Origin: Lentisphaerae bacterium RIFOXYA12_FULL_48_11 | Lineage (GTDB): Bacteria; Verrucomicrobiota; Kiritimatiellia; UBA8416; YA12-FULL-48-11 | Length of the DNA: 60,477 nt | Direction: 5' to 3' | NCBI GenBank assembly: GCA_001804885.1 | Contig: MHBM01000050.1 | Coordinates: forward strand, 1 to 60,477 | Notes under the pieces: generated by a model | Databases searched by the model: none | The model's input: only the letters and a program-made list of their open reading frames with translations | What the model was told of the DNA's origin: nothing | Position numbers and translations under genes: made by a program | Shown here: in pieces, positions 2 to 32,994 of the stretch | How the letters are laid out: each line of letters begins with the position of its first letter | Numbering within the stretch: the first letter of the stretch is position 1

Positions 2-1138
2 CGGCTTAATCATATGGTGACAGTCTGCGGTTATGGCTCCAACTGGTACCTGGTCGCCAATTCCTGGGGTACCGACTGGGGCAGCAATGGGTTCACCTAT
101 GTGGATGCCAATTATTTCGAGAACTATTTCGGCGATGTTTTCTATCCTCTGGAAGGAGTTTACACGCCGGCTACCAATTATATTACCCTAAAGGTCACTC
201 ATTCACTCCGCAGTGATTTGCAGGACATGCAACTGTTGATCAACGGTTCAGTCGCTCGCAGTTTTCCTCCTACACCGCAAGATATGCCAACTAATAGCGG
301 GGGCATTTATCTAACCGATAACAGGGATGATCTGAACCTGGCTGTTGATTTGTCGCTTGCAAACTGGCATGCATCCTCAAACCGGGTCACCATCCGTATC
401 GGCGATCGGAAGAGCGGCACGACCGGTACCATCCAGAATTTCACAGTGGTCTACAACGGTGCAACATATTCCAGCACTACCACTCCGGTAAACATTCCTG
501 ACTTAACCGGGTATGGGAGTAACGATGTGCTACTTTACCGGCTGGATACGGAAGCTACCACATACGGATCTGTTAGCGTGGGCGACCAATGGATTCTTGG
601 AGGTATAACAACGAACATAACGGCCATTGCAAATCAGTACTACCACTTCACTAACTGGACTGGTGACGTAACCGGCGGCATGATTTACACCAACCCGCTG
701 GCCCTGATAATGAATCAGCCCAAAGCAGTGACAGCAAATTTCACGGCTAATCTAACATCCAACACATCCACCCCTGAGGCATGGCTGGCAAATTATGGCT
801 ATACCAATTTCAACGAGGATGCAGTAAGAGATCCATTAGGCAAAGGCATGAAGCTTTGGCAGGAATATATCGCCGGAACGGATCCGACAAATGAACATGA
901 TGTGTTTGAGATAAAATCCATAACCAACGAATCGGGTTCTTTCGACATTACATTCTTTGGTCGAACCGGACGATTGTACTGCGCGAACTGCGAATCCAAT
1001 CTGATAGCAGGTCAAGGATGGGCAATTCTTGGCACCCAAAGCAATATTGTCGGCTCTAATGCGGTGATTGAAATTAAAGATCTGGATTTGCTCCCGTCAT
1101 TACGCTTCTATCGAATCGGCGTCCGGTTGCAGGAGTGA
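2..1138 (+). CDS. 5'-partial secreted papain-like (C1A) cysteine peptidase with P-domain-like region, InlB-B-like repeat and EYIAGTDP-type C-terminal domain
   Basis: Frame is open from base 2 and reads RLNHMVTVCGYG...WYLVANSWGTDWGSNGF, matching the catalytic His and Asn motifs of papain-family enzymes. C-terminus WQEYIAGTDPTN...RFYRIGV. Confidence 0.8.
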   Translation, partial: RLNHMVTVCGYGSNWYLVANSWGTDWGSNGFTYVDANYFENYFGDVFYPLEGVYTPATNYITLKVTHSLRSDLQDMQLLINGSVARSFPPTPQDMPTNSGGIYLTDNRDDLNLAVDLSLANWHASSNRVTIRIGDRKSGTTGTIQNFTVVYNGATYSSTTTPVNIPDLTGYGSNDVLLYRLDTEATTYGSVSVGDQWILGGITTNITAIANQYYHFTNWTGDVTGGMIYTNPLALIMNQPKAVTANFTANLTSNTSTPEAWLANYGYTNFNEDAVRDPLGKGMKLWQEYIAGTDPTNEHDVFEIKSITNESGSFDITFFGRTGRLYCANCESNLIAGQGWAILGTQSNIVGSNAVIEIKDLDLLPSLRFYRIGVRLQE

Positions 1139-1672
1139 TGAATAAATAACGATGCTAGAGCGGTTGAAATAATACTGTCATTCAGTCTCCATTTTCCGCG
1201 TTCGCGCGGAATGGAAACCGCAGTTAGCCGAAGCTTCGGCTCAAATGGGCCGGAGAAACGGCATTTAAAAGAATACGCTGATGACAGCGTACGCTACAGA
1301 TCGGAAGAATGCGTTGTGGACAACACACGCTTCCTAGACTCGGTTGCCTGCCTTGCTATAGCCTAGCGACAGCGGGGTCCTGACCCAATCTCTTCGGCTG
1401 TGACAGCCGACCCTATATCATCTCACCAGACGTGTAGCACCCTTTGGCAGCGGAACTTCACTTCGACAAAATCCCTCCTGCTTTCTCACGCTCAGTCGTG
1501 ACCATGAAGCTAGTCCGGATATAGCCCAGAGTAGCCCCTGAGGGGCCGCGCAGGGTTATATGCCGGCCAGCTCATTCGACGCTCATTTTGCATCGAAAAA
1601 ACGCGCTGGCATCTCGTTTGCTATGTGGTGTGGACATGCATGCATAATAAGTTTCTACGTGCGAAAGGTGAA

Positions 1673-3586
1673 ATGCGCGATTGCTTGAGAAAAGCCTTTA
1701 TTTTCGGGGTTTATGTGGGACTCGGCTGTGGCTTTGCCAGCCAGTTGCAGGGGCAAACTATTCACTATGTGGCCCTGAGCGGCGGCAATATTTTCCCCTA
1801 TACAAATTGGTCCGAGGCCGCAAACACAATTACCGGGGCGGTGGCGGCAAGCTCAAACGGTGATGTCATATTGGTGGCCGATGGACATTACCTGCTGACT
1901 GCACCAGTGGTTTTAACAAACAGCATTACACTGTCTGGCACAAACGAGGCTTGCGGAGCGCTTGTGGATGGACAGAACAGCGTTCGCTGTTTCGAATTGA
2001 ATCACGCGAATGCAGTTGTGGCTAATCTGACGGTACAGAAAGGGTATGCAACGGATTATGCCGGCGGGCTTGATATTGTCGCAGGAATGGTAACCAATTG
2101 TACGATCGTCAGTAATCGGGTGGATGCCGCTCGTGCAGACGGTGGCGGCATATGTTTGGGTCCCTGGGGAATCCTGACACACAGCCGTGTACGTTACAAT
2201 ACTGTCACCGGCAGTCTCGATACAGTAGGCGGCGGTGTTTCTGTCTGGGGCTCGGGCGGCGAATACGGGCACGTCTATTCCACCGAAATCAGCGGTAATC
2301 GGGCGTATTCAGATAGCACCAACAGCCTTGGCGGTGGAATCTTCTTTTATGAAGGCGGACTTGGTGAGGCACTACAATTAGAAAACAATATAGCACAAGG
2401 TGCAGGCGGGGGCGCAATGCTCGTTAGAGGTGGACTCTTAAATGACAGCCAACTTATTCGCAATGAAGCAGTCACGCGGGGCGGCGGAATAGCATTTTTT
2501 GAGGTCGGAGGACAGATTGTGGATTGTGATGTTGTCAGCAATAAGGCCGGCAATGTGGGTGGCGGCCTGGATTACTTCGAAGGGGGAAGCGCATCAGGAA
2601 TGTATTGCGTGTCAAACTATGCTGCCAAAGGAGGCGGAGCATACTTCTCCTCTGGCGGCGCAGCCACAAACTGTACGTTTGCCTATAACAGCGCTCAGAC
2701 AGGTGGTGGTATTTATACAACAAATGCACCGGCTACTGATCCTGGAAGACTGCATGCGTCCATCGTCAGCTTCAATCAACCGGATAATTACTTTTTTTCA
2801 AGTGCATTCAGTCAGTTTCTCGAATATTGCCTGATCACACCCAGTAACGCCTATTTCAATGGCGCCGGTGTTTTGATAGGTGAGCCAACGCTGCTGGCGG
2901 ACGGCTCAGGGCGCCTGCAAGTTGGTTCATTAGGGATTGATCAGGGTAGCAGCAGCGGGGCCCCCCGCCGTGAAGACCTTTTGCAGGATTATCCCGCCGA
3001 TGCGAATTTTGATGGAACTACTCTTTTCGACATAGGCGCATTCGAATTCAGCAATCTGCGTGATTCAGATAGTGACGGTATGCCTGATGGATGGGTATAC
3101 CGCTATTTTGGACAAATCACCGGGGTAGCCACCAACGACGACACCGATGGCGACTCAAGGAGCAATCTGGCAGAGTTTGAAAATAATACCAATCCGATCA
3201 ATGATCTGGACGATGGCTGGGCCTGGCTTGATGGCCTTCCATTGGGGTGGCGTTCTAAATACTTCCCTACCAATAATTTGACCGTACAACCTGGGGATGA
3301 CGCCGATAATGATGGAATGTCGAATCTCGAGGAAGCTATAGCGGGCACGAATCCGACCAATGAAGCTTCATATTTCAATTTATCTGTACTCAAAGAAGCC
3401 TCAGGCCGTTTGCTCTTATATTGGACAGGGGCTCCAGACAGAACTTATCACGTACATGGCGCAGATACGCTGATTTCCACCAATTCTTTCAATAAAATCC
3501 ACTCCCTGCCTTCAAGTCCTGTTTACAGGGATCTGGAATATATACCAGAAGGGGGCAATTTCTTCCGGTTATCTGTCGAATATTAA
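1673..3586 (+). CDS. secreted right-handed beta-helix (pectin-lyase-like/polymorphic repeat) protein with choice-of-anchor-Q-like motif, Ca-binding DxDxDG repeats and C-terminal domain
   Basis: Signal-peptide-like start after AAAGGTG; repeated N-x-A-x-x-GGG(I/A) units; DIGAFEF; DSDSDGMPDGW and DADNDGMSNLEEAIAGTNP; ends FFRLSVEY. Confidence 0.7.
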   Translation: MRDCLRKAFIFGVYVGLGCGFASQLQGQTIHYVALSGGNIFPYTNWSEAANTITGAVAASSNGDVILVADGHYLLTAPVVLTNSITLSGTNEACGALVDGQNSVRCFELNHANAVVANLTVQKGYATDYAGGLDIVAGMVTNCTIVSNRVDAARADGGGICLGPWGILTHSRVRYNTVTGSLDTVGGGVSVWGSGGEYGHVYSTEISGNRAYSDSTNSLGGGIFFYEGGLGEALQLENNIAQGAGGGAMLVRGGLLNDSQLIRNEAVTRGGGIAFFEVGGQIVDCDVVSNKAGNVGGGLDYFEGGSASGMYCVSNYAAKGGGAYFSSGGAATNCTFAYNSAQTGGGIYTTNAPATDPGRLHASIVSFNQPDNYFFSSAFSQFLEYCLITPSNAYFNGAGVLIGEPTLLADGSGRLQVGSLGIDQGSSSGAPRREDLLQDYPADANFDGTTLFDIGAFEFSNLRDSDSDGMPDGWVYRYFGQITGVATNDDTDGDSRSNLAEFENNTNPINDLDDGWAWLDGLPLGWRSKYFPTNNLTVQPGDDADNDGMSNLEEAIAGTNPTNEASYFNLSVLKEASGRLLLYWTGAPDRTYHVHGADTLISTNSFNKIHSLPSSPVYRDLEYIPEGGNFFRLSVEY

Positions 3587-3720
3587 GGATTATCACTTTG
3601 TATTTAAGCAATGGGTGGAAATGCCGATGATTGTTTCAAGCGGTTGTTTTTTAGCAGACATCAAACCAAGGAGGGTTAGTGATGTTTTTTTACAAACAGT
3701 TAAGGTCTAAGGAGAGAAAC

Positions 3721-6258
3721 ATGAGAGCAAATGGAGTGATAGGAGTGGTACTGGCAGCAGTTTTGAGTCTAACAATTGGGTTATCAGCATTTGCTGATCC
3801 GGTATCTGAAGATACCGCAATGAGACTGGTTAGCAATTGGCTGGTCGCTGAGAAAATGACAGGCTACACGGCAAAAAGCGTGCAAGCCGTCACCGCGGAG
3901 GATGGAACAATTCTCCATTATATCGTGAAATGTAACCCAAAGGGGTTTGTGATTATTGCGTCGGATACCCGCATGGAGCCCATCATTGCTTTTTCAGGGG
4001 CAGATAACACAAGAACTGATAACCCGCTGTTTAGTATAGCCCGGCAGGATACTACGACACGCCGAAAACTGCTGGACACCGCCGATGCTCTTCGTGCTAC
4101 AACAGCTTCGAAGAAAATGGCGCAACAGGACGCGCCTGTCACCGCTGACACATCAGCAGAGGATAATCTGATCACTCAGTTGGATGCAGTCGAGAAGGAA
4201 TCGGCTGACAAATGGAGTTCCATTCTGACTGCCAGTTCAAGACCCCGTAAAGGAAGCGGGAGTGACGATCCTATTGCAGCTCTCCGACCAACTCGCGACA
4301 TTGTGGCATATGATGCACCACCTGCTGAAGGCACCCCTACAGAGGCTTTTGCCCCAGCCGGACTAACCGTATGGACAGCACCAATCATAGAAACCTCATG
4401 GGATCAGAACAAACAGTTTGGTAATTTTGGTTCTAATCTTTATAACCTAATGACCCCCAGTAACCGTCTTGCGGGTTGCGGTCCAGTCGCATTGGCACAG
4501 GTCATGTTCTACCACAAATGGCCAATGCAGGAATTGGGTTCAACTGCAGGAACCGCTGTAGTTCAACAAGTCAATGGCACCTACAGTACTAATGCCTATA
4601 ATTACTTTGCGACCTATACGAACGCAACAGGCGTTTTGTCCATGACTAATATGTCCCTGGAATATAAGAACGACGCTTCAGCTTCCGTAACTTGGACAAA
4701 TGTATCAAAATTGATGGCTGATATTGGTGTTGCAGCTGGTGCCACCTATTATACAAACCAGACTGGAACAACCTTGCAGAATCTCCATACTGCAATGACT
4801 GACGTTTTCCAGTATCCGAGAGCTGTCTATGGCAGTACGTCCAATAATTTCATTGAAATTTTGAATCTCAATGTTCTTGGGAAAAAACCTGTGGTGATGG
4901 CATTCGCTAATTCCGCCGCACTTGATGCAGGTCATATCGCTGTTGTAGACGGGTATGCCGTCTCTGCCCAAAACACCAAGTTTCATCACTTGAACCTTGG
5001 GTGGGGTGAGGTTGGTGAAAACACAGCATGGTATAACCTGCCGACGATTATCGCGTACAATACCATACAGGGCTTTATTTATAATATCATGACCAATGGC
5101 GAAGAGCTTGTTACCGGCCGTATTCTTGACTCAGCCTCGTCGGCCCCGGTGGAGAATGTCACCATAACCATTGGTTCAAAAACCAGCACATCGGACGAAT
5201 ATGGCGTCTATGGCATAGAGGTGGATTCTGCCAGCGTTAATGAGGTAGTACTTTCCAAGATAGGGTATGTGACACAAACTTATACGGTCACCAACGGAAC
5301 GTCTTCTGCAAATACCCCTGGTAATAAATACAATTCTATTACGCTTGTAAAAGCACCAGACATGTCTTTTACGGCAGGGACCTACGGTAGTAACATTGTG
5401 CTATCATGGTCTTGCCCGACAAACTCCTATTATCCTAAGGATATTATCATTATTGCCACAACGAATGCCGGCGGCGCGGATACAGGCTATGCCACGTATT
5501 GGACCAACGCAACAATGCCAACGGAGTGGTTTACAAACTGGAGTGAGGGTACGTGGATAGCAGGGGCTACCAACTCCGCCCCAGCAGTGCTTTTACCGTC
5601 CAATCAGGTTTTCTGGGCCGATGGAGAAGCGACCACCAATCTGCTACTTTCTGATATGCCACTGAACGTTACCTACTACTTCAAAATGTGGGCTACGAAT
5701 GCAACGACGGGGTTCATTGAAATCGAGAATGGTACGTCAATGGCATATGTCACGCCTGATTCAAATAATGAAATTCTCTATTTCCAGGAGACGAATGCAA
5801 CAGGCAAGGCCTATTTCATGATGCCCAAAGCTGGTCAGCAAACTAGTGGGACTTATCAGTGGAAATATGAAGGCTGGTGTGCAGAAAGTAATATGTCACT
5901 CTACAACCTCGCCGGCTCTGCGGATTTCAACTCTAACGGTATTCCAGATATCGTCTGGCAACGGAAAACCGATTCAGCAAACAATGATGAGAATTATATT
6001 CTCTGGGATATGAATCTGGACGGAACACTGAACGAGGCGCATAGTATGTTGGCTTCTGTTAATATTGGGGCTGCTTGGCCGATGGTTGGCATCAAAGACA
6101 TGGATACCGATTCTCATCCTGATATTGTTCTAAGCAATACGAATGACAGTCGCATGTTAATCTACTATATGACTAGCGGCATCTACAATGCCTCGAGTCC
6201 CATCATTACCAATACACAGCCTTTGAGTGTTCAGTTCAGAGTACCGGGTAATCGGTAA
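3721..6258 (+). CDS. secreted C10 (streptopain-like) cysteine peptidase with Spi-like prodomain, carboxypeptidase-regulatory-like and FG-GAP-like domains
   Basis: GGAGAG RBS, signal peptide, prodomain motif GFVIIASD, catalytic AGCGPVALAQVM, GHIAVVDGY, HLNLGWG; ADFNSNGIPDIVW near the C-terminus. Confidence 0.85.
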   Translation: MRANGVIGVVLAAVLSLTIGLSAFADPVSEDTAMRLVSNWLVAEKMTGYTAKSVQAVTAEDGTILHYIVKCNPKGFVIIASDTRMEPIIAFSGADNTRTDNPLFSIARQDTTTRRKLLDTADALRATTASKKMAQQDAPVTADTSAEDNLITQLDAVEKESADKWSSILTASSRPRKGSGSDDPIAALRPTRDIVAYDAPPAEGTPTEAFAPAGLTVWTAPIIETSWDQNKQFGNFGSNLYNLMTPSNRLAGCGPVALAQVMFYHKWPMQELGSTAGTAVVQQVNGTYSTNAYNYFATYTNATGVLSMTNMSLEYKNDASASVTWTNVSKLMADIGVAAGATYYTNQTGTTLQNLHTAMTDVFQYPRAVYGSTSNNFIEILNLNVLGKKPVVMAFANSAALDAGHIAVVDGYAVSAQNTKFHHLNLGWGEVGENTAWYNLPTIIAYNTIQGFIYNIMTNGEELVTGRILDSASSAPVENVTITIGSKTSTSDEYGVYGIEVDSASVNEVVLSKIGYVTQTYTVTNGTSSANTPGNKYNSITLVKAPDMSFTAGTYGSNIVLSWSCPTNSYYPKDIIIIATTNAGGADTGYATYWTNATMPTEWFTNWSEGTWIAGATNSAPAVLLPSNQVFWADGEATTNLLLSDMPLNVTYYFKMWATNATTGFIEIENGTSMAYVTPDSNNEILYFQETNATGKAYFMMPKAGQQTSGTYQWKYEGWCAESNMSLYNLAGSADFNSNGIPDIVWQRKTDSANNDENYILWDMNLDGTLNEAHSMLASVNIGAAWPMVGIKDMDTDSHPDIVLSNTNDSRMLIYYMTSGIYNASSPIITNTQPLSVQFRVPGNR

Positions 6259-6271
6259 GAGTTAAGCGACC

Positions 6272-6305
6272 AAAAAGCTCCACCGGAATTCCGGTGGAGC
6301 TTTTT
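6272..6305. terminator. bidirectional intrinsic terminator (perfect 34-bp palindrome)
   Basis: AAAAAGCTCCACCGG-AATT-CCGGTGGAGCTTTTT between convergent genes. Confidence 0.85.
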
Positions 6306-7704: not shown

Positions 7705-8231
7705 CTTCTTGATGATTGTAAATGGATTTACAAATTGCAAGAACAATCATTCTGTTATTTCTCTCAAAATCCTTCGCTGCCTTCCATGGCACGCCATAGT
7801 TCCGAAGGAACGACGGCGGCTGTTAACAACGCCCCAGCCTCTTCACTTGGTGAACTTGGCGATCTTTGTGGTAAAGAATCTTCTCCTCTCGGATTTTTAA
7901 CACCCGCGCTTCCCAGCGCTCCCATCTTCGCCAAAGCGCTACGACGTGGCAAGCAAGTTGCCCAAGTACACGAAGGAAAGATTAAGCACCATCTTCGTAC
8001 TACTATCTGTCAGAATCGTGTTTTTTTATGCAGAAGCTAAGAATAGTTCACCACGAAGAAAGAACAAGGGTGCACGAAGTGAAGCAAAAAGTATTTCTTT
8101 GTGTCCTTCGGGCACTTGCCTGTCCGCCGCAGCTATGGATTACAGGGGCGAAGGCTGGAAGGCCGGGAGGCCGGGTGGTTAAAATATTCTTTGGTTGCGG
8201 CTTCCCGCGCTGTGAACTTTGCCGTAAGATC

Positions 8232-8645
8232 TCACCTTTGGAAACCGGCCAGCAATTCGTCAGGAGCAAAAACCTTCAGCGCGGCATGACGAAAATCCTT
8301 TTGATTTCGTGTAACAACAACCTCGGCTCCTGCCAGTCTGCCGGCTTGATCAAGAACTGCATCCTCAAAATCCGTGAGTTTACTTTTAAGAGCTTCTTCC
8401 AAAACGACACGATTAACCGACGCAATTTCAAACAGTTCCAATAACTTCCTCAGCGCTTGAGTGGCAGAGGAACGAGACATGGATTGCATAAGAAGATAGT
8501 CAATCGTTGTAATAGTTGTCGCGCACAAAAGTCCTTCGATTTTTGAGTGTTCAACCAGAGAGAATACTTCTGCAGAAGCGCCGACAAATGGCTGCCGTGC
8601 AAGAAGCACATCCAGTACAACGTTGGTATCGACCAGTATCCTCAC
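8232..8645 (-). CDS. PIN-domain (VapC-like) toxin
   Basis: N-terminal ILVDTNVVLD, DFEDA and VTRNQKDF acidic PIN motifs; 4-nt overlap with the upstream antitoxin. Confidence 0.85.
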   Translation of the reverse strand: MRILVDTNVVLDVLLARQPFVGASAEVFSLVEHSKIEGLLCATTITTIDYLLMQSMSRSSATQALRKLLELFEIASVNRVVLEEALKSKLTDFEDAVLDQAGRLAGAEVVVTRNQKDFRHAALKVFAPDELLAGFQR

Positions 8646-8881
8646 GAATACTTCTCCCTCAGGTGCTTCCGATATTCGGATTCAGTAATATCACGATCTT
8701 TCAAGATACCAATCAACGACTTCGTAACAGGGGGGAGTTCCTGTTCCGTACGACGCCCCGATGCCAGGGAATCAAAGAACTCCCCGACTATTTTTGAAAC
8801 CGACTTGCCTCGACGACCCGCCTCTTCTTTGGCTGTCCGAATCAGTTCAGTATCCATACGTAATGTGAGCTTTGTATTCAT
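8642..8881 (-). CDS. DUF6364-like ribbon-helix-helix antitoxin
   Basis: MNTKLTLRMDTELIRTAKEEAGRRGKSVSKIV, an RHH-type pattern, directly upstream of the PIN gene. Confidence 0.75.
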   Translation of the reverse strand: MNTKLTLRMDTELIRTAKEEAGRRGKSVSKIVGEFFDSLASGRRTEQELPPVTKSLIGILKDRDITESEYRKHLREKYS

Positions 8882-8917
8882 GACGTACAAGCTACTATAA
8901 TGTGTACGTCAAGTCAA
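8881..8917 (-). promoter_or_regulatory. TA promoter with palindromic operator
   Basis: Minus strand TTGACT-17-TAGCTT-7-ATG; 9-bp inverted repeat TGACGTACA (8881-8889) / TGTACGTCA (8903-8911). Confidence 0.6.
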
Positions 8918-9276
8918 TCCATTTTTTTTCGTTTCAGTCTCCCCATCGGCGTCATCCAGCCTTCGCTCGGAAGCTACGGCGGACAAGTCTGCGAAATCGG
9001 CGGTTACCTCATCTTCTTACACATCAGTGCTATCCTTCTAATCCGTGGTCAATAATCTTCTGCCCCCTTCGTGAACTCGGTGGTAAAAGAGCCTTTTCTG
9101 ATCCATCCCAAACACCCCAATCGGCAAAAATTTCCGCTTGTGGCATCCCCCCTGCTATTTAACCTCCTACAGTCAAAGATACCTGCATAATTGACGGGCA
9201 CGGAGTGTATCAATCACCAGCAAGTTACAATCTTCAATATGTTGCAAATGAATAACTTACACAAGGAGAATATCCG

Positions 9277-9483
9277 ATGAAGACCATATTCATGACTGCT
9301 GGAAAAGCCAGAGGAACCCCCCAGGCTAAGGCGCAAACGACAGCACCCGGAGTAATCAACTACACCCCGCCCCAATCATCTTTCTTAGCCCCAACCCAGA
9401 AAAAGCTGCAACTTATCCTCAAAACAGCCTTTTCAGAACATTCCTACGAATTTGCCATCGATTCCGACGGCCTGACAGCATGA
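9277..9483 (+). CDS. small hypothetical protein (68 aa)
   Basis: AAGGAG RBS 8 nt upstream of the ATG; no recognisable motif. Confidence 0.4.
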   Translation: MKTIFMTAGKARGTPQAKAQTTAPGVINYTPPQSSFLAPTQKKLQLILKTAFSEHSYEFAIDSDGLTA

Positions 9484-9642
9484 AAAACATGATCACCACA
9501 AAGTTCACCAAGAACACCAAGTTAAAATCCCTCTCTTGCCGAAATCATCCCGACCTCTTGGAGCGTCGGGATGTGGAGACCGTATGACGCATTTTGTTTC
9601 TTCGGGAAAAGATTTTATGTCAGATAGCCCAAAGCGCAAGGC

Positions 9643-9761: not shown

Positions 9762-12700
9762 ATGAATATCTTTGATCAAAATCTGGAAACACTAAGCAAA
9801 CACTACCCGTCACTTGCCGAACGCGTCCTGTCCTACCCCGACAAAGACAACCTCGTCGCCTTCGAGACCAAAGATGGCGGCCTCGCCTACGCTCTAAAGA
9901 AAGATACCGGCATCGAATACCTCACCGACCCCGTAACCCCTGTGACTCGCATCGGCAACCAACTCCAGGCCAACTCCTCCAAGCTCAGCGACTTCACCCT
10001 CCCCGTCATGGTCATCGGCACCTACCCCGGCGATGAAATCCTTTACCTATTCGATCTCTGCGAAAAGGCACCGATACCACATGCCGGACAGAAGCTTTAT
10101 GTCTGCATCGACTCCATTGCCTGTTTCTGTGCTTTCCTCCAGACAATGGATGCCCAGCGGGTAATCCAGTCAGACCGGGTAAAATTCTTCTGGCATGAAG
10201 AAGCCGAAGCGCTTGCAAACGAGTTTCGCCAGAAACCTGATCTTTCTTATCTTTTTACACTCGTGAGCGGCGCCCTGAACGGATCTGTCAACAAGGTAAT
10301 GAAGCCTTTCATCAGCCTTGTACAGGAACGTTCTGCAGAAACCCAGCGCCTCATGAGCGAAAACGAAGCCTATTACGACGCGATAAGTGATGAAGAGTTA
10401 GCAGAAGTTATTAGCAATCAGTTCTCAGTTAACAGTCAAGTATCAGGAAATGGATGCCTGAAGTCAGAGGGATGGCAAGACGCTGGCGAGCCGTTTTCAT
10501 CCCACAACACAGAACTCGAAACCCGAAACTCGAAACTTCTTAACGCCCCTACTGATAACCGATCACTGCTAACTGATAACTCCTCCACTCGTGCTCCACG
10601 TTTAATGACCTTGACCTCCTCATGGTCCACCGTTACCCAATATGGCGCACGTGATCTTTGCGAAGCCATGGAATCAGCCGGCTGGCAGACAAGGAAACTC
10701 AATGTTGACGGCACCCCGACGGCACACTATATCGCCAAGCAGATCAACGAATTTAAGCCGGATATATTTGTTTTTATCAATCATCTTCGTACCGAGTGCT
10801 CCACCCTTTTCCCTAAGAACATGATGTTTATCACGTGGGTCCAGGACACCGTCCCGCAGATAAACAATCACGAAGCCGCCGCAAAGTGGAATTCTATGGC
10901 GACAGCAAAGTTAACCACGGAGTTCACAGAGACACAGAGTAATCAGGAAAACTCTTCTTCCTCTTCCCTTTGTGACCTTAGTGGTGAAAAATCTTCTTCC
11001 CCGTCGCGGAAACGCGATCTCATCATCGGTTACGTCGGCCAACTGAAGAAATATGGCTATCTCGAAGATCGCCTTGTTGAAATGCCCATGATTGTCAACC
11101 CCAACATCTTCAAGCCCAGGGTATTGACAGAAGAGCAAAAGGCAAAATATGGTTGTGATGTAATGTTTGCATCCCGTGCAGGACAGCCATCCTATGAACG
11201 TATAGAAGAAATGCTCACCGAATGGAATGAGGGTAAAAACCTGAATTGCCCGCGTAATGCGCTGACCGATCTTCATAACCGCTTATGGGACGCGTACCGG
11301 GACGGAGAAACTTTCTGTAGCTATACAGCGGTAGAAACCTTCGCTTTAACTGTCCCTTCCTTTGCGAAATGGTATTCTGCCCGGACAGAAGAAGAACGAG
11401 ATTACCTGCAACAACAAATATTCTGGTCACTAAACGATCTGATTTACCGTCAAGCCGTAATTGAATGGCTGGACGAACTGGCCTCCGGCCAAGAAACTAA
11501 AGACGACAAACAACAGACTCCTTTTAGACAGGATGAACATGATATACACAATACCGAGTCGCCATCCGGCGACATTAACCGAAATCTTTCTGATCCTGTA
11601 AATCCCGTCAAAATATCTTCCTCCGATAACTCGAAACTCGAAACCCAGAACTCAGAACCACGTAAACGCTTACGTTTGCATTTGTACGGCGATGGCTGGA
11701 ATCGTCATCCACGTTTTGCCAGATACTGGAAAGGTGTGCTGGGACATGGCGAGGAATTGTCTATTGCCTTTCAGTGCGCCCAGCGGTGCCTGCACTTGAA
11801 CTCAATGGAAAGCGGTCATCAGCGCCTGCTTGAAATCATCGCATCAGGTGGCCACCCCCTCACCCGTACCAGCTTGCCAGCCGATTCGGACAGCTCGTTA
11901 CTCCATTCTGCTTTGCGTGTCTATGCCCAAGATTCCTCGCGTTGGCTGGAAAAGTTGCCGGAAGAAGAATGCCTCTTCATCAACGCATGGCTTTACCCAG
12001 TTATTATCCGTATGCTGAAAAATGATCCGACACAAACCAACGCACAAATTGCACAAACCCTGCATGACGACATGATCCGGAAGCTGTGGAAACATCCCGA
12101 CTGGACAGTTTCCGGTTGGAATTCACTGGTGTTTCACTCCCGAGTTGACTTGGAACAGATGTTATCGGGTCCTGTCGCCGATTGTGATATGAATACCGCC
12201 GCACAACGCCTGGGGTCCATCAACGGTCGTTACTTGGCGCATGCCATCGTCAACATCTTGGCACGGTACCTCTTGAAAAAAGAAACGGCGAATATAACAT
12301 CGGAAAATCCATGGCAAGCTTTAATTCAATACGCAAGACTGCTGTCACAACCCGACATATCAATAGATGAACTTTTGAGCGCATTCCATGCAATCAGGCA
12401 TCCACACCAGCAAATTATCTTAGATACGGTTAAACGCCTGGAAGAAAAAGGCGCAAACGAGCAGATAGTTTTACTTCTGGATAAAGTAAGTCCCGAGAAC
12501 ATGCCCAGCCGTCAACTGACTACTTACGCTAACGGTCTTGCGAATAGTGGACGGTTTGATGATACGCTTGAGATAATTGACCTTGCCTACACCAAAAACC
12601 CCAACCTCAAAGACGTACACGCCCGCATCGCTTGGAAACACTTCTGGACACAAAAAGACCATGCCAAAGTCATAGAATGGATGCTTCTTGACGACACCGC

Positions 12701-13976
12701 TAACCGGTTGTCGCCCGGTCAGCGTTTGAATTTCGCCCAGGCACTGTCTGCTCAAGGCGACATAGCCACCGCCGAAAAACATGTCGAAACCGCCTATACC
12801 GCCGACCCCAATCTCAAAGATGGTTATGCACGAATAGGCTGGCAGGCTTATTGGGATACCAAGCAATATGCAAAAGTATTCAATCTTTGCAAACGTGACA
12901 TTCAGTCCCGCCAAATTTCTCCCGGCTGGCTCATCAATGCCGCCAAAGCCGCCGCCGGGATGGGCAAGATGAATCAAGCCGACGAACTCATCGAACAGGC
13001 CTACGCTGACTCTAGTGATATCAAAAACGGTTATGCCCAGATTGGATGGCAGGCTTTCGCACCTCTCAGCGCATTTGATCGAACCCTTCCATGGTTCGAA
13101 CGTGATTTTGCGCAGAACCGACTCAATCCCACATGGCTTCTCAACTATGCGCAAGCCCTCTCAGCTTGTGGCGATTACGACAAAGCTAACGAGCTAGTCG
13201 ATCAAGCCTATGAGTCTGATCCGACTCTGAATAATGGTTATGCCCGCTGCTCTTGGATGCGGTATGTTATGGTGTCATTCGAACCAGAAAAAGCACTTGC
13301 GAGTTTCGAAAAAGACAAAACACTGGGAAAGCTGGTTGGTCAGCACAAAATCCTGCATGCCATCGTCATGGCCGCTGCAGGTGATTTCGCTACAGCCTTA
13401 TCAATGGTCAAACAAACATACGACGAACATCCGGAATGCACGGATGGTTTTTCACTCATTGGTTGGTATCACTTTGTCGTTAATCACAATGGCGCTGAAA
13501 AAGCCCTCGAGTTATTCAAGCGGGATCGGGAGGTAGGGCGACTATCTCACCAGACGCAACTTCTTGAGGCCGCCGTCCATGCCAATATTGGCAATATTTC
13601 AGAAGCAACCGATATTGTTACAAACAGTTACACCACGTCTCGGACCGTAGTTGGCGGTTATACACTTGTTGGATGTCTCAACTACTTGAGCAACCATAAC
13701 ATTTCTTTCACTCTGGAAATGCTTCAGAAGGATCGCATTTCTGGGCGAATCCAAAATGGTTTCCTGAAATATATCCATGCCTCTTTCCTGATGAAAGACG
13801 GAAACATTGCTAAAGCAGATGAGCTTCTTAAGCAAACCGCCTGTTCCGCGATCAGTGAACAGTATGCCGTGTGCTGGCTACAACGTCTAGGTTTCCAGGC
13901 ACCCGACATTGTCGATTTAATAACACCTGAACTTCACCAACAATTCCAGAAGGTATTACATTTTTCGCGTACTTAG
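9762..13976 (+). CDS. large glycosyltransferase: Maf-like N-terminus + CgeB/YkvP-like (GT-B) core + C-terminal TPR-like repeats
   Basis: MNIFDQNLETL Maf-like start; FITWVQD, CDVMFAS, LYGDGW, HQRLLEIIASGG (CgeB-like); repeated AY..DP.LKDGYARIGW units; three low-complexity in-frame insertions. Confidence 0.7.
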   Translation: MNIFDQNLETLSKHYPSLAERVLSYPDKDNLVAFETKDGGLAYALKKDTGIEYLTDPVTPVTRIGNQLQANSSKLSDFTLPVMVIGTYPGDEILYLFDLCEKAPIPHAGQKLYVCIDSIACFCAFLQTMDAQRVIQSDRVKFFWHEEAEALANEFRQKPDLSYLFTLVSGALNGSVNKVMKPFISLVQERSAETQRLMSENEAYYDAISDEELAEVISNQFSVNSQVSGNGCLKSEGWQDAGEPFSSHNTELETRNSKLLNAPTDNRSLLTDNSSTRAPRLMTLTSSWSTVTQYGARDLCEAMESAGWQTRKLNVDGTPTAHYIAKQINEFKPDIFVFINHLRTECSTLFPKNMMFITWVQDTVPQINNHEAAAKWNSMATAKLTTEFTETQSNQENSSSSSLCDLSGEKSSSPSRKRDLIIGYVGQLKKYGYLEDRLVEMPMIVNPNIFKPRVLTEEQKAKYGCDVMFASRAGQPSYERIEEMLTEWNEGKNLNCPRNALTDLHNRLWDAYRDGETFCSYTAVETFALTVPSFAKWYSARTEEERDYLQQQIFWSLNDLIYRQAVIEWLDELASGQETKDDKQQTPFRQDEHDIHNTESPSGDINRNLSDPVNPVKISSSDNSKLETQNSEPRKRLRLHLYGDGWNRHPRFARYWKGVLGHGEELSIAFQCAQRCLHLNSMESGHQRLLEIIASGGHPLTRTSLPADSDSSLLHSALRVYAQDSSRWLEKLPEEECLFINAWLYPVIIRMLKNDPTQTNAQIAQTLHDDMIRKLWKHPDWTVSGWNSLVFHSRVDLEQMLSGPVADCDMNTAAQRLGSINGRYLAHAIVNILARYLLKKETANITSENPWQALIQYARLLSQPDISIDELLSAFHAIRHPHQQIILDTVKRLEEKGANEQIVLLLDKVSPENMPSRQLTTYANGLANSGRFDDTLEIIDLAYTKNPNLKDVHARIAWKHFWTQKDHAKVIEWMLLDDTANRLSPGQRLNFAQALSAQGDIATAEKHVETAYTADPNLKDGYARIGWQAYWDTKQYAKVFNLCKRDIQSRQISPGWLINAAKAAAGMGKMNQADELIEQAYADSSDIKNGYAQIGWQAFAPLSAFDRTLPWFERDFAQNRLNPTWLLNYAQALSACGDYDKANELVDQAYESDPTLNNGYARCSWMRYVMVSFEPEKALASFEKDKTLGKLVGQHKILHAIVMAAAGDFATALSMVKQTYDEHPECTDGFSLIGWYHFVVNHNGAEKALELFKRDREVGRLSHQTQLLEAAVHANIGNISEATDIVTNSYTTSRTVVGGYTLVGCLNYLSNHNISFTLEMLQKDRISGRIQNGFLKYIHASFLMKDGNIAKADELLKQTACSAISEQYAVCWLQRLGFQAPDIVDLITPELHQQFQKVLHFSRT
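10406..10581. repeat. nested ~7-bp-period palindromic repeat element inside CDS
   Basis: AGTTATTAGCAATCAGTTCTCAGTT ... AACTCGAAACCCGAAACTCGAAACT ... ACTGATAACCGATCACTGCTAACTGATAACT. Confidence 0.65.
10913..11000. repeat. ACCACRGAG / CTYYGTG-type palindromic repeat inside CDS
   Basis: AACCACGGAGTTCACAGAGACACAGAG ... CTTTGTGACCTTAGTGGTGAAAA; same family as intergenic copies at 7840-7885, 9066-9088 and 9493-9523. Confidence 0.75.
11522..11658. repeat. GACAGGAT / ATCCTGT-type palindromic repeat plus AACTCGA-type repeats inside CDS
   Basis: TTTTAGACAGGATGAACATGAT ... ATCCTGTAAATCCCGTCAAAA ... AACTCGAAACTCGAAACCCAGAACTCAGAAC; internal hairpin GTCGCC-ATCC-GGCGAC. Confidence 0.65.
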
Positions 13977-25385: not shown

Positions 25386-26264
25386 ATGAATAGACATTCT
25401 ACAGTACCAAGTGACTTTGCCTTGGCGCAGCAGGCGGCAATGGAAGCTGGACGTTTGCTGCGGAAACAGCGGGCAGCCTGGAACCAGGTGACAAGTGTCA
25501 CTCAACACGATATCAAGCTGCAGGCGGACCGCGCCGCTGAAACGGTAATCCTGAAAATACTCAAAGAAGGATCACCTTACCCGATCCTGTCTGAAGAGGC
25601 TGGCGAACTGAAAGCTACCAACCCCAACTCTTCTCCACGGCTCAGTGGTGAGTCTTCCTCTTCCCTTCGTGGTCTTGGTGAACTTTGTGGTAAATCTTCC
25701 ATCTCTTCTGTCCCTCCAGACAAAGAATATCTCTGGATTGTAGATCCGCTGGACGGAACAGTAAATTATTCGCGTGGAACCCCTTTGTCAGCCGTATCAA
25801 TCGGACTATGGCAAAACAACAAACCGGTCTACGGTGTAATTTACGATTTCTGGCGTGATGAACTTTTCCACGGCGGATCTGGTTTTGGCGCATTTATGGG
25901 ATATCAGTCGATAAAAGTCAGCGGGACAACTGATCCACAACTTGCAATCCTTGCCACAGGGTTTCCCGCCAACAGCGACCACAATACTGCCCCGTTGCAG
26001 CAATTCCTGGAATCAGTACAGCGTTTCAAGAAAATTCGTTTACTCGGGACAGCAGCCCTTTCCATGGCCTACGTGGCCTGCGGTCGTACCGATGCATATA
26101 TGGAACGGGATATTATGCTTTGGGACATCGCCGCCGGCGCGGCAATAGTCCAGGGCGCTGGAGGAGTGATCTCTATCGAACCATCCAGTAGAGTACCTAA
26201 CGCCTGCTTGACGAAAGCCGCCGCATCCATCGATTTACTCAACGCCCTAGAAAGCAAAAAATGA
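25386..26264 (+). CDS. inositol monophosphatase family phosphatase with an in-frame repeat insertion
   Basis: ILSEE, WIVDPLDGTVNY, WDIAAG; a Ser-rich insert of about 30 aa lies between SEE and WIVDP. Confidence 0.9.
   Translation: MNRHSTVPSDFALAQQAAMEAGRLLRKQRAAWNQVTSVTQHDIKLQADRAAETVILKILKEGSPYPILSEEAGELKATNPNSSPRLSGESSSSLRGLGELCGKSSISSVPPDKEYLWIVDPLDGTVNYSRGTPLSAVSIGLWQNNKPVYGVIYDFWRDELFHGGSGFGAFMGYQSIKVSGTTDPQLAILATGFPANSDHNTAPLQQFLESVQRFKKIRLLGTAALSMAYVACGRTDAYMERDIMLWDIAAGAAIVQGAGGVISIEPSSRVPNACLTKAAASIDLLNALESKK
25628..25712. repeat. CTTGGTGAACTTTGTGGT-type repeat inside the IMPase CDS
   Basis: 25673-25691 is the exact reverse complement of intergenic 9495-9513 (19 nt). Confidence 0.8.
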
Positions 26265-26426: not shown

Positions 26427-28304
26427 ATGTTAAAGATCGGTATTATTGGATCTGCTGGCAAGATGGGTGTAATTCGCCGTCATCTTTTTTCGCAAACCCC
26501 TGATTGCCAGGTTGTTGCACTTTGCGACACCTATAATCCTAACGGTTCGGATATTCCATTCACATCCGACCCATATGAGATCATTCGCAATCCCGACATT
26601 GATGCCGTCTGTATCTGCACCCCAAACTACATGATCAAGGACCTTGTCGTCTCTTCGCTTGACGAACACAAGGACGTTTTTTGCGAAAAGCCGCCCGGAA
26701 TATCACTTGCTGAAGTACGGGATATGAGAGCTGCCCTGGAGCGCAACAAGGGACTTAAACTTAAATTCGGATTTAATCACAGATATCATGACGCCATCCT
26801 TGAGGCAAAAAGACGCGTAGACACCGGCAAATATGGTCGCATTCTATGGGTTCGAGGCCGGTACGGCAAGAGCGTGGATGCGCAGTTCGCCAAAACATGG
26901 CGCGCCAACCGCAAACTTGCCGGTGGAGGTATCCTCCTTGATCAGGGCATCCACATGCTCGATCTCTTTCTCCTCTTCTGTAACAACTTCGATGAAGTAA
27001 AGGCTTTCTCTTCCAGCCAATACTGGAACTGGGATATCGAAGACAATGTTTTCGCCATCTTCCGCAACCGCCAGGGACAGACCGCCTCCCTGCACAGTAC
27101 GATGACACAGTGGCGGCAACTGTTCTCCCTTGAACTCTTTCTCGAGCGCGGCTACATGGTCGTCAATGGTATTCTATCGGCGTCGGGGGGATATACAAAT
27201 AACTACGCCAAGGAGGAATTGTCAATTGCCCTCAACCGGAGCCCCGCACCACAAGCACGGCATACTCATGAAGAACGCCTGGTGTTCGACCAGGATCACT
27301 CTTTCGCCCGCGAGGTCGAAGAGTTCACAAACGCTATCCAGCATAACGGCAAGATACGGGTAGGTAGCATCGACGATGCAGAAAAACTTATGACAGTGGT
27401 GGAGAAGATTTATACCAATGCCGACAAGGACCTGCCTGAGTATGCGCCAGAGGAATTCGCGGTGAGTGCTCCTGCAGTACGTTCGGCGACAGAAAAGAAT
27501 GAAACGCAGCATATTCAACCCATCAAGCAAACCGCTCCCGTCACATCAACAGAAATGCCAGTAAGTCGTTTTACGGGACGTATGAACAGGATTCAGGATA
27601 TGTTGATTCATACCGAAATAGCCAATGGCGGCCTGCAACCGATTAATGCCGATCAGGGATTTGCCAAGCTATTACTCTGGACACGCATGACGCAAACGCA
27701 TGGCGGAACGGTCTATCTCATAGGTAACGGGGCAAGTGCATCCATGGCCAGCCATATTGCCGCAGACCTTTGCAAAAACGGGAACCTTAGGACACAAGTA
27801 TTCACGGATCTCTCGCTCATCACAGCCGTGGCAAACGATATCGGGGCCCATGACATCTTCTCAACGCCCTTGGAGCGGTTCGCGGATCAGGACGATCTGC
27901 TGATTGCCATCAGTAGTTCAGGATCGTCACCGAACATCATTAAAGCGGTGAACAGCGCACTTGAGCGAAGGATGAAGGTTATTACTTTCTCAGCAATGAA
28001 ATCCGATAATCCGTTACGTTCATGTGGTCATATCAATTTTTACGTGCCGGCGCTTACCTATGGGGAAGCCGAAACCTGCCACGCAGCACTTCTTCACTAC
28101 TGGGTGGACCTGATGGTAGGCGACATACCTAAACAATCTTCCGAGCCCCAAAACAACTTTGAACCTTTAAATATTGATATCAATAATCGCTCCGATGACC
28201 AGAAGCTCCCGCTAAAGGCTGCAAAAGAAAAATCATGTACAGTCTCCAACCAACGGACTGCCAACAAGAATCGGCGTAAGTCACCATGCATGTCATCGCC
28301 ATGA
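26427..28304 (+). CDS. Gfo/Idh/MocA oxidoreductase fused to a GmhA-like SIS sugar-phosphate isomerase
   Basis: IGIIGSAGKMG, CEKPP, GGGILLDQGIHMLD; then GNGASASMASH, TAVAND, IAISSSGSSPNI. Confidence 0.85.
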   Translation: MLKIGIIGSAGKMGVIRRHLFSQTPDCQVVALCDTYNPNGSDIPFTSDPYEIIRNPDIDAVCICTPNYMIKDLVVSSLDEHKDVFCEKPPGISLAEVRDMRAALERNKGLKLKFGFNHRYHDAILEAKRRVDTGKYGRILWVRGRYGKSVDAQFAKTWRANRKLAGGGILLDQGIHMLDLFLLFCNNFDEVKAFSSSQYWNWDIEDNVFAIFRNRQGQTASLHSTMTQWRQLFSLELFLERGYMVVNGILSASGGYTNNYAKEELSIALNRSPAPQARHTHEERLVFDQDHSFAREVEEFTNAIQHNGKIRVGSIDDAEKLMTVVEKIYTNADKDLPEYAPEEFAVSAPAVRSATEKNETQHIQPIKQTAPVTSTEMPVSRFTGRMNRIQDMLIHTEIANGGLQPINADQGFAKLLLWTRMTQTHGGTVYLIGNGASASMASHIAADLCKNGNLRTQVFTDLSLITAVANDIGAHDIFSTPLERFADQDDLLIAISSSGSSPNIIKAVNSALERRMKVITFSAMKSDNPLRSCGHINFYVPALTYGEAETCHAALLHYWVDLMVGDIPKQSSEPQNNFEPLNIDINNRSDDQKLPLKAAKEKSCTVSNQRTANKNRRKSPCMSSP

Positions 28305-31500: not shown

Positions 31501-31576
31501 TTTAGGACCTGAATTTTACGCAGCGACGCACAGAATTCACGTCAGGTCGCAACACTAGAAACCGGTCGGTTGTGGT

Positions 31577-31672
31577 GGGAACAGCAGACAGCCTGGAACC
31601 AGGTGACAGCACCACTCAACACGATATCAAGCTGAGGGCGGACCGCGCCACTGAAACGGTGATCCTGAAAAT
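31577..31672 (+). pseudogene. degenerate fragment of the inositol monophosphatase 5' region
   Basis: Aligns with 25462-25558 (shared CAGCCTGGAACCAGGTGACA, CACTCAACACGATATCAAGCTG, GCGGACCGCGCC); carries a 1-nt deletion and no start. Confidence 0.85.
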
Positions 31673-31737
31673 GCACAGGTGGAAGGACGAAGATATGCAG
31701 TTGACACCTGTCTGATAGTTTTGGTTATATCCTACAA

Positions 31738-32994
31738 ATGTCACAAAATAACACATCCATCGTCCATACAAGAAATCTCTACACAAAACGGATTCAACCG
31801 TTCATGGGCCGCCCGATGGTCAAGATCCTCACAGGAATGCGACGCGTCGGCAAGAGTTGTCTGCTGCACCTGCTACACGACGAGCTTCTGAAAAAAGGCA
31901 CAAAACATTCAAACATTTGCTTCATCGACAAGGAATCCCTTGATTTCGACACCATCCGAACAGACCATAACCTGCACGAGTTTGTCATCGCCACCTTCAA
32001 GAAATGCAAGGGACCCAGGACTCTCCTGATCGACGAGGTTCAACTCATAGAAAAATGGGAACGCGCAATAGGCTCTCTGGCAGGTAAAGGCGACATGGAT
32101 ATTGTGCTAACCGGTTCCAACGCACAGCTCCTTTCCTCAGAATTGGCAACCCGGCTGTCCGGACGTTATATCGAATTCCCTATCTTCGGCCTGGGTTTCT
32201 CGGAATTCCTGACATTCCGAGGTCGGGCCGTCGAAAACCGTGAAACGGAATTCCTCCGATTCCTGCGATATGGAGGACTTCCAGTGCTGCACCACATGGA
32301 AATGACCGACGAGGTCATTTTCCAATGTCTAAACTCCATTTACAGCACAATATTACTCAAAGACATTGTAAGCCGGCATTCCATACGTCAAGTGCCACTG
32401 CTCGAAAATATAATCCGTTTCGTATTCGATAATGTCGGACAACCCATCTCGGCCAACCGTATCGCCGCACATTTGAAGTCTCAACGCCTGCATGTTGGCG
32501 TCGATACGGTAATCAACTATCTCGGGTACTTCCAGGAGGCCTTGATCACCCACAAAGCGGCACGTTATGACATCAAAGGACGACGGCTCCTCGAAACGTA
32601 CGACAAGCATTACATTGGAGACCTCGGTCTGCGCCACGCCCTGCTGGGTTATCGGGAATCTGACATCTCGCACCTACTGGAGAACGTAGTCTACCTGGAA
32701 CTGCGCAGAAGAGGCTACAACGTAGCAATCGGCAAATGGGGCAACCGGGAGATTGACTTCATAGCCTTAAGAGAAAAGGAAAAAATATACATCCAAGTCG
32801 CGTATCTGCTGGCCACACCTGAAACCGTACAACGCGAGTTCAAGCCCCTTCAGGAAACGCCTGACAACTATCCCAAACTTGTGCTCAGCATGGATCCACT
32901 GTTTGGCGACGATCATGAAGGCGTCCGGCGCATGCACCTGCTCGATTTCCTTCTCCAAACAACATCCGACGAACAACGTGCTGCGGCAAAATGA
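31738..32994 (+). CDS. AAA_14 + DUF4143 ATPase (copy 2)
   Basis: GMRRVGKS, LLIDEVQ, TGSN, SGR, DLGLRH, LENVVY, EIDF...YIQVAY. Confidence 0.9.
   Translation: MSQNNTSIVHTRNLYTKRIQPFMGRPMVKILTGMRRVGKSCLLHLLHDELLKKGTKHSNICFIDKESLDFDTIRTDHNLHEFVIATFKKCKGPRTLLIDEVQLIEKWERAIGSLAGKGDMDIVLTGSNAQLLSSELATRLSGRYIEFPIFGLGFSEFLTFRGRAVENRETEFLRFLRYGGLPVLHHMEMTDEVIFQCLNSIYSTILLKDIVSRHSIRQVPLLENIIRFVFDNVGQPISANRIAAHLKSQRLHVGVDTVINYLGYFQEALITHKAARYDIKGRRLLETYDKHYIGDLGLRHALLGYRESDISHLLENVVYLELRRRGYNVAIGKWGNREIDFIALREKEKIYIQVAYLLATPETVQREFKPLQETPDNYPKLVLSMDPLFGDDHEGVRRMHLLDFLLQTTSDEQRAAAK

Follow-up and report, generated by a model that had tools for sequence, protein, structure and literature searches.

It is established for the Rickettsia palindromic elements (RPE; Ogata et al. 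2000, summarised in PMC10969869), which are about 150 bp long, palindromic, and encode a conserved peptide, that repeats from between genes can also insert into genes in frame. The same has been reported for ERIC and other MITEs (PMC10969869, PMC2759123, PMC3184786). The ERIC and RU repeats of enterobacteria (Delihas 2007, PMC2759123; Delihas 2011, PMC3184786) are extragenic hairpin repeats that occasionally lie within ORFs and contribute peptide there; they are 100-170 bp long with terminal inverted repeats, and are unrelated in sequence and size to the repeat discussed below.

The case described here concerns a gene for an inositol monophosphatase (IMPase)-family protein; the bacterium, a member of the Victivallales (Lentisphaerota), is free-living and comes from an environmental metagenome. 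The gene lies in the window, by which we mean the whole 60,477-nt stretch of DNA that was analysed. As with RPE, short interspersed repeats are found between genes and also in frame in unrelated metabolic genes, where a peptide segment is added and the host protein is not destroyed, while homologues elsewhere are without the segment. Unlike RPE, the copy in the phosphatase gene comprises one arm of about 50 recognisable bases built of 9-nt tandem units, the host is free-living, and two flavours of repeat occupy the same loop in orthologues. The features that characterise RPE-type insertions and were found here are a mainly extragenic multi-copy family, a preserved reading frame, homologues without the segment and, in the structural model, a surface location. 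The single-arm IMPase copy is not palindromic, whereas the glycosyltransferase copy and many extragenic copies are two-armed. The present case works like the RPE-type insertions, yet by sequence and anatomy it is neither an RPE nor a MITE. The features on which the analysis rests are collected in Table 1.

Table 1. Phosphatase gene, its insert and related repeat copies in the window (window coordinates).
Feature	Position	Strand	Details
IMPase-family phosphatase gene	25386..26264	+	292 aa from ATG 25386; frame open from TTG 25359
In-frame insert, about 33 codons, residues ~78-110, TNPNSSPRLSGESSSSLRGLGELCGKSSISSVP	25617..25715	+	approximate boundaries, measured against orthologues
Pyrimidine tract TCTTCCTCTTCC	25653..25664	+	just 5' of the repeat core; common to the copy at 10956-10967
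Repeat core, three 9-nt units CTTCGTGGT CTTGGTGAA CTTTGTGGT	25665..25691	+	reads LRGLGELCG
Repeat tail AAATCTTCCATCTC	25692..25705	+	like the tails after other copies
Extragenic copy	7840..7887	+	profile E 4.2e-4
Extragenic copy, weaker	9053..9094	+	profile E 7e-3
Extragenic copy, closest match to the IMPase copy	9480..9525	-	repeat search and profile
Two-arm hairpin copy, in frame in the 1404-aa ORF 9762-13976	10911..10997	+	profile and RNA fold
Decayed duplicate of the 5' part of the IMPase gene	31553..31700	+	79-91% nt identity, indels; repeat families D12 and D14, alignment A2

The phosphatase gene and its setting

In a Pfam profile search, the product of 25386-26264 matched PF00459 at 164.9 bits (E 3.5e-48; cut-off 27). 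Its AlphaFold (AF2) model, built on 23 aligned homologues, was confident overall (pTM 0.81), and a Foldseek search with this model returned the IMPase 5zhh as the best match (TM-score 0.83 normalised to the target); the top matches were exclusively IMPase/SuhB structures with TM-scores of 0.80-0.87, normalised in the same way. Residues E70, E71, D120, P121, D123, G124, T125 and D247 were invariant among the 23 sequences of alignment A1, and W246, also present, was conserved in at least 90% of them without being invariant. The gene encodes an intact IMPase-family enzyme with the IMPase fold and the metal-binding motifs EE, DPxDGT and WD. Fold and motifs are common to this protein and to the IMPase/SuhB/FBPase-type phosphatases (PF00459; solved structures 5zhh, 2qfl and 2hhm); unlike the known members, the window protein has a 33-residue loop and reaches no equivalog cut-off. 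All seven matches to NCBIfam equivalogs (SuhB, HisN, CysQ, FBPase/IMPase) fell far under their cut-offs, the best one scoring 123.6 bits against a cut-off of 264.

The gene is part of a long co-directional glycan-tailoring operon, together with methyltransferases, a radical SAM enzyme, MptE-like proteins, GT2 and GT9 glycosyltransferases, a GFO-SIS fusion, a CMP-sugar-type cytidylyltransferase and YhcH. Because of the scores below the equivalog cut-offs and this operon context, the enzyme is named only to the level of the IMPase family: it is an IMPase-family phosphatase to which neither the equivalogs nor the glycan operon assign a substrate.

Two observations on the surroundings may be added. 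A decayed fragment of the same gene follows the last gene of the operon and stops at the LSEE codons, just short of the loop, and an unrelated 418-aa gene starting at 31738 comes after it; since the fragment ends before the loop, it is uninformative on the insert. In contigs of the type that carries the closest orthologue (G013, see below), a sulfotransferase gene (PF13469/PF00685) lying upstream runs into the IMPase gene (L024 4084-5849, L025 2039-3813), the overlap being 4 nt as called in L024 and about 55 nt in the longest ORFs of L025. It is a hint of a possible activity of the clade on PAP, the by-product of sulfotransferases, like that of CysQ; the 14 Pfam-scanned genes beside the window IMPase showed no sulfotransferase.

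A repeat arm within an extended loop

Between its two motifs the IMPase reads SEEAGELKATNPNSSPRLSGESSSSLRGLGELCGKSSISSVPPDKEYLWIVDPLDGT, the peptide between SEE and WIVDPLDGT being NSSPRLSGESSSSLRGLGELCGKSSISSVPP. This peptide had been pointed out in a sequence-only reading of the window, which placed it at 25628-25712. The peptide is indeed present in the ORF 25359/25386-26264 and the location is right, whereas the boundaries are 2-3 nt off the codons (N is encoded by 25626-25628, and the second P by 25716-25718). The same reading held that IMPases normally have a short loop at this place, which agrees with what we found: the EE-to-DPxDG spacing is 48 residues in the window protein, while in the 120 best homologues from a search of 5.8 billion proteins its mode is 16, with about 100 of the 120 having 13-18 residues. 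Only one other cluster among these homologues, P0002, has a long spacing, of 33 residues. In alignment A1 the insert is missing in 20 of the 22 other sequences; the exceptions are G013 and P0002, each with a long loop of its own, and 3-4 extra residues are present in P0003 and P0008. In a phmmer comparison with the PDB the match breaks at query positions 75/112 versus chain positions 75/79, which leaves about 33 IMPase residues without a counterpart. Taken at the level of sequence, these comparisons establish the segment as an insertion relative to nearly all homologues.

In the AlphaFold model, residues 76-111 have pLDDT values below 50 and the rest is modelled confidently. The insert is accordingly predicted to form a disordered, Ser-rich loop on the surface, between two confidently modelled strands. 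The intact reading frame indicates that it would be translated.

The DNA of the insert contains a recognisable copy of a repeat that is found elsewhere in the genome. The stretch 25673-25691 (TCTTGGTGAACTTTGTGGT) is the exact reverse complement of 9495-9513, as had been noticed before, and the complementarity extends to 25 of 27 nt (25665-25691 versus 9495-9521); by hand calculation, about 3e-5 exact matches of 19 nt would be expected by chance between an 85-nt segment and both strands of the 60-kb window. The likeness of the loop to a translation of intergenic 7840-7885 was likewise confirmed, with 7840-7884 reading SSLGELGDLCGKESS. From the upstream pyrimidine tract into the core, 25653-25680 is 86% identical to 10956-10983 (repeat family D15). 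Downstream of it stands the tail AAATCTTCC, which also follows many other copies of the family; comparable tails are AAAAATCTTCCCTCTC on contig C71, AAAGAATCTTCTCC at window position 7873 and GAAATCTTCCGTCTC in the G013 IMPase gene. When a profile was made from 14 other copies, with the IMPase and glycosyltransferase copies left out, an nhmmer search of the whole 5.68-Mb genome found the IMPase copy (25664-25696) at rank 8, with 22.9 bits and an E value of 2.5e-4. About 50 of the approximately 99 inserted bases are demonstrably repeat-like, and in a search of 25617-25652 for a decayed left arm only CCACG matched, which is not significant. As judged from these matches, the inserted DNA belongs to the interspersed repeat family of this genome.

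Since the core consists of three similar 9-nt units in tandem and its flanks are of low complexity (TCT/TCC codons), the loop might be thought to have grown on the spot into a Ser-rich tract, by slippage or by duplication of such a unit; the extragenic likeness would then be due to chance or to extragenic copies derived from coding sequence. We regard this as highly improbable: the exact 19-nt and the 25/27-nt match are to another copy, upstream tract and tail are shared, the leave-out profile recovers the copy at the E value given above, the family is strongly extragenic and occurs in both orientations, and the G013 insert equally matches a triple-unit family of its own genome. Equally improbable is an assembly artefact, with a repeat misjoined into the contig, or a decaying pseudogene. 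It is true that the genome is known from a single assembly (a cluster with one contig) and that a decayed second copy of the 5' part of the gene lies 6 kb downstream. Against this, the segment is bordered on either side by IMPase sequence that runs on in a single open frame and retains every catalytic residue, and a chimeric join would not restore the gene; moreover, the analogous G013 insert is identical in two independent assemblies, the second being a Logan assembly.

The three frames of this repeat arm differ in what they encode: one contains TGA, one is open but hydrophobic (FVVLVNFVV) and one is both open and hydrophilic. The IMPase uses the last of these, and the hydrophilic frame is the expected survivor of a filter for tolerated surface insertions. 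Neither a direct repeat (target-site duplication) flanking 25617-25715 nor, on reading of the sequence, terminal inverted repeats at these positions were found, and assignment to the MITEs was rejected on this account. A search for an adjacent transposase at the insert found none. A DnaA box was also considered, as the last unit with the tail (TTTACCACA, other strand) is 1-2 mismatches away from one; the resemblance is inconsistent among the copies and was put down to chance.

The same loop in orthologues

An orthologue is present in only 3 of 64 Victivallales species genomes, and the same-genus genome G001 is without the gene; a metagenome scan for closer relatives gave none above 50% identity. 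The orthologue in G002 (55% identity) has a short loop. The closest one, 65-69% identical, belongs to the Victivallales MAG G013. There, as in the window genome, a GFO/SIS gene follows the IMPase gene, which supports orthology of the two. The G013 loop has 27 residues, LQLSTSSIRAHSRSSRLKSSVSDNNCR, and its DNA reads CATTCGCGCC CATTCGCGTA GTTCGCGGTT GAAATCTTCC, that is, three TTCGCG units with a period of 10 and the same kind of tail.

These units are typical of the G013 genome. The pattern TTCGCG-N3-4-TTCGCG-N3-4-TTCGCGG occurs seven times in it, the IMPase copy included (control 0), and is found in none of G000 (the window genome), G001 and G002; the remaining copies in G013 look extragenic and comprise arms as well as hairpins. 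The GTG-flavour pattern, for its part, has 17 occurrences in the window genome and 3 in G013. These counts show, as far as pattern matching goes, that the flavour of each orthologue's loop is the one typical of its own genome. A long loop shared by homologues without DNA similarity to repeats, which would have told against a repeat origin, was not seen: the only long-loop homologue, G013/P0002, carries the flavour of its own genome. What is new here is that one loop is occupied by different, genome-specific repeat flavours in orthologues.

Maximum likelihood grouped the proteins as (window,(P0003,(G013,P0002))), the supports being 99/94 and 100/99. P0003, which is 76% identical to G013, has a loop that reads ...GESELPSGSDRGYRW, with 18 residues between EE and DP, which is the ancestral length. 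Given two flavours and the insert-free P0003 between them, either the loop was hit twice or an insert was overwritten by gene conversion. We favour two independent hits as the more probable course, a reading based on parsimony and a single intermediate protein, P0003.

The competing possibility is a single ancestral insertion in the four-member clade, followed by a clean deletion in P0003 and by overwriting through gene conversion in at least one lineage (concerted evolution). It would account for both inserts occupying the same loop of about 11 ancestral residues in syntenic orthologues, for their starting near CCACG and ending with AAATCTTCC(A/G)TCTC, and for their common frame (K-S-S-I/V-S). 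However, CCACG and AAATCTTCC are consensus parts of the repeat family and are no proof of common descent, and the loop of P0003 is at ancestral length (18 versus the mode of 16). Three units of 9 nt of the GTG type cannot turn into three units of 10 nt of the GCG type by point mutation, only gene conversion being able to do so, and the single insertion takes three events in place of two. We therefore consider it the less probable course, though one with a real share of the probability. Under either reading, the repeat family was active after the enzyme clade had diversified.

The repeat family and the status of the insert

The pattern CTTBGTGNNCTTNGTGGT has 17 copies in the 5.68-Mb genome and none in a reversed control; a slightly wider pattern gives 19 copies, again against none. 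ORFs of 200 aa or more make up 84% of the genome but hold only 5 of 20 family copies (binomial P 7e-9). Roughly half the copies are located 1-90 nt downstream of a gene end, many form inverted pairs able to fold into a hairpin, and both orientations occur. The family is mainly extragenic, of the hairpin type and REP-like. Since it is extragenic, the transfer was most simply from an extragenic repeat into coding sequence, and we infer that the direction was from extragenic DNA to gene. The copies of this genome represent a derived flavour (CTTGGTGA...), which the IMPase copy shares; this argues for its local and fairly recent origin.

Apart from the IMPase gene, the 1404-aa ORF of the window contains a copy in frame (the glycosyltransferase copy; glycosyltransferase at 10406-11658), and the RNA fold of 10911-10997 pairs both arms (z -1.6). 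The earlier claim of a second gene with an in-frame repeat of the family found at 7840, 9053 and 9495 is thus sound, whereas the domestication it attached to these repeats does not follow, as discussed below. A core CTTGGTGTCCTTCGTGGT on contig C143 (3441-3473, - strand), within an 1886-aa ORF (629-6289) and in a different frame reading GLVSFVVSS, may be a third in-frame copy or due to chance (profile E 0.046). The 1404-aa ORF also contains, at window positions 10496-10543 and 11618-11665, two copies of a second repeat type, AACTCGAAACTCGAAACCC..., and a motif similar to it precedes a 9-mer family copy on contig C71. In the repeat-rich 2-kb gap of the window between 7750 and 9760, two small overlapping ORFs (137 and 82 aa; 8232-8890, - strand) resemble a toxin-antitoxin pair by their arrangement only. 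A CRISPR array with the repeat GTCGCGCCCCTCGTGGGCGCGTGGATTGAAAC stands at the end of contig C291 (about 26900-27224), and one of its spacers, TTTGTTACCTTCGTGTCCTTTGTGGTGAACTCT, contains the full two-unit core of the family. The best match of this spacer elsewhere in the genome has 7 mismatches, and among viral contigs there was no exact match; such a spacer suggests that foreign DNA also carries these repeats.

The family is not confined to this genome. Of 64 Victivallales genomes, 31 contain a GTG core, the controls giving close to none; its commonest form is CTTCGTG(T/C)(C/T)CTTCGTGGT. The copies are often paired in inverted orientation, at distances of 35-110 nt, and some form alternating arrays. 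In G028, another Victivallales genome, arrays in which the 18-nt core changes orientation from copy to copy, about 80-90 nt apart (C174:59-749 and C261:8357-8617), resemble strings of hairpins. Like REP/BIME, these repeats are imperfect palindromes of short length that often stand in inverted pairs or arrays; a genome has tens of copies, about half of them after gene ends; unlike REP/BIME, their arms consist of 2-3 tandem units of 9 or 10 nt, and the core is conserved across an order and not just a species. A REP/RAYT system was considered and rejected, as the Y1 transposase genes of the genome are not flanked by the repeats: no family copy lies closer than 1.2 kb to any of the 10 Y1 (PF01797) matches, and C218 is the one contig with copies 1.3-4 kb from a Y1 transposase gene. 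In the window, Rfam at the gathering score detected only a tRNA and no repeat family, and our literature search found no paper that describes this one.

That the core is conserved in 31 of 64 genomes is no less compatible with a functional cis-element than with a selfish mobile element. It may be speculated, as a reading of rather low probability, that the 9-10-nt tandem-unit hairpins are a still active and, as far as we could find, undescribed family, with an order-wide core, genome-specific flavours and some route of spreading or homogenising, for which the EE-DPxDGT loop would be a preferred site of landing or conversion, or in which the element would be kept for its action in cis. The route envisaged here would do without terminal inverted repeats, target-site duplication and an adjacent transposase.

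Co-option of the segment itself, either as a DNA or mRNA cis element of the glycan operon (protein binding, RNA processing or pausing) or as a peptide tag of the enzymes of the locus, seems to us unlikely. Conservation of the 9-nt core in many Victivallales families suggests constraint on the motif, the same loop is occupied in two orthologues, and two enzymes of the locus carry the repeat in the same frame (glycosyltransferase SSSSLCDLSGEKSSS, IMPase SSSSLRGLGELCGKSS). This shared frame, however, is simply the open hydrophilic one. The segment is missing in P0003 and all other homologues, the loop is predicted to be disordered, promoter and terminator signals are not above chance, and the RNA of the IMPase copy, which has one arm, forms no hairpin and folds no better than shuffled sequences (z +0.5). 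The sequence-only reading had spoken of domestication of the repeat; with the segment predicted to be disordered, devoid of an RNA hairpin and missing in the close relative P0003, that term is not supported. In view of no sign of gained function, 'tolerated passenger' is the defensible wording: the insert is presumably neutral and is best read as such a passenger.

Our preferred explanation, which we hold to be quite probable, is that a one-arm copy of an interspersed repeat became coding sequence of the IMPase gene and was tolerated as a passenger, in a loop that was hit twice or converted. A copy consisting of the pyrimidine tract, the three 9-nt units and the tail would have entered the coding sequence, embedded in about 99 inserted bases. 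It would have landed in the surface connection between the strand bearing EE and the strand bearing DPLDGT, and its translation in the sole frame both open and hydrophilic would give a disordered loop, rich in Ser and about 33 residues long. The insert leaves the catalytic machinery intact and is, on this reading, a passenger and not a new functional module. The same loop of the nearest orthologue carries the other flavour, either because a permissive site was hit a second time or because an old insert was gene-converted.

The finding leaves the knowledge of IMPase function unchanged. It provides a clean example, outside Rickettsia and enterobacteria, of extragenic repeat DNA turned into protein sequence in a conserved enzyme, and shows that the same permissive loop can hold different repeat flavours in orthologues. 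Annotators gain an explanation for the odd Ser-rich loops and the spurious matches of low complexity met with in genomes of Lentisphaerota and of the wider Planctomycetes-Verrucomicrobia-Chlamydiae (PVC) group. On the evolutionary side, it amounts to a small natural experiment on the protein sites that tolerate random insertions, and is evidence of recent activity of the repeat family.
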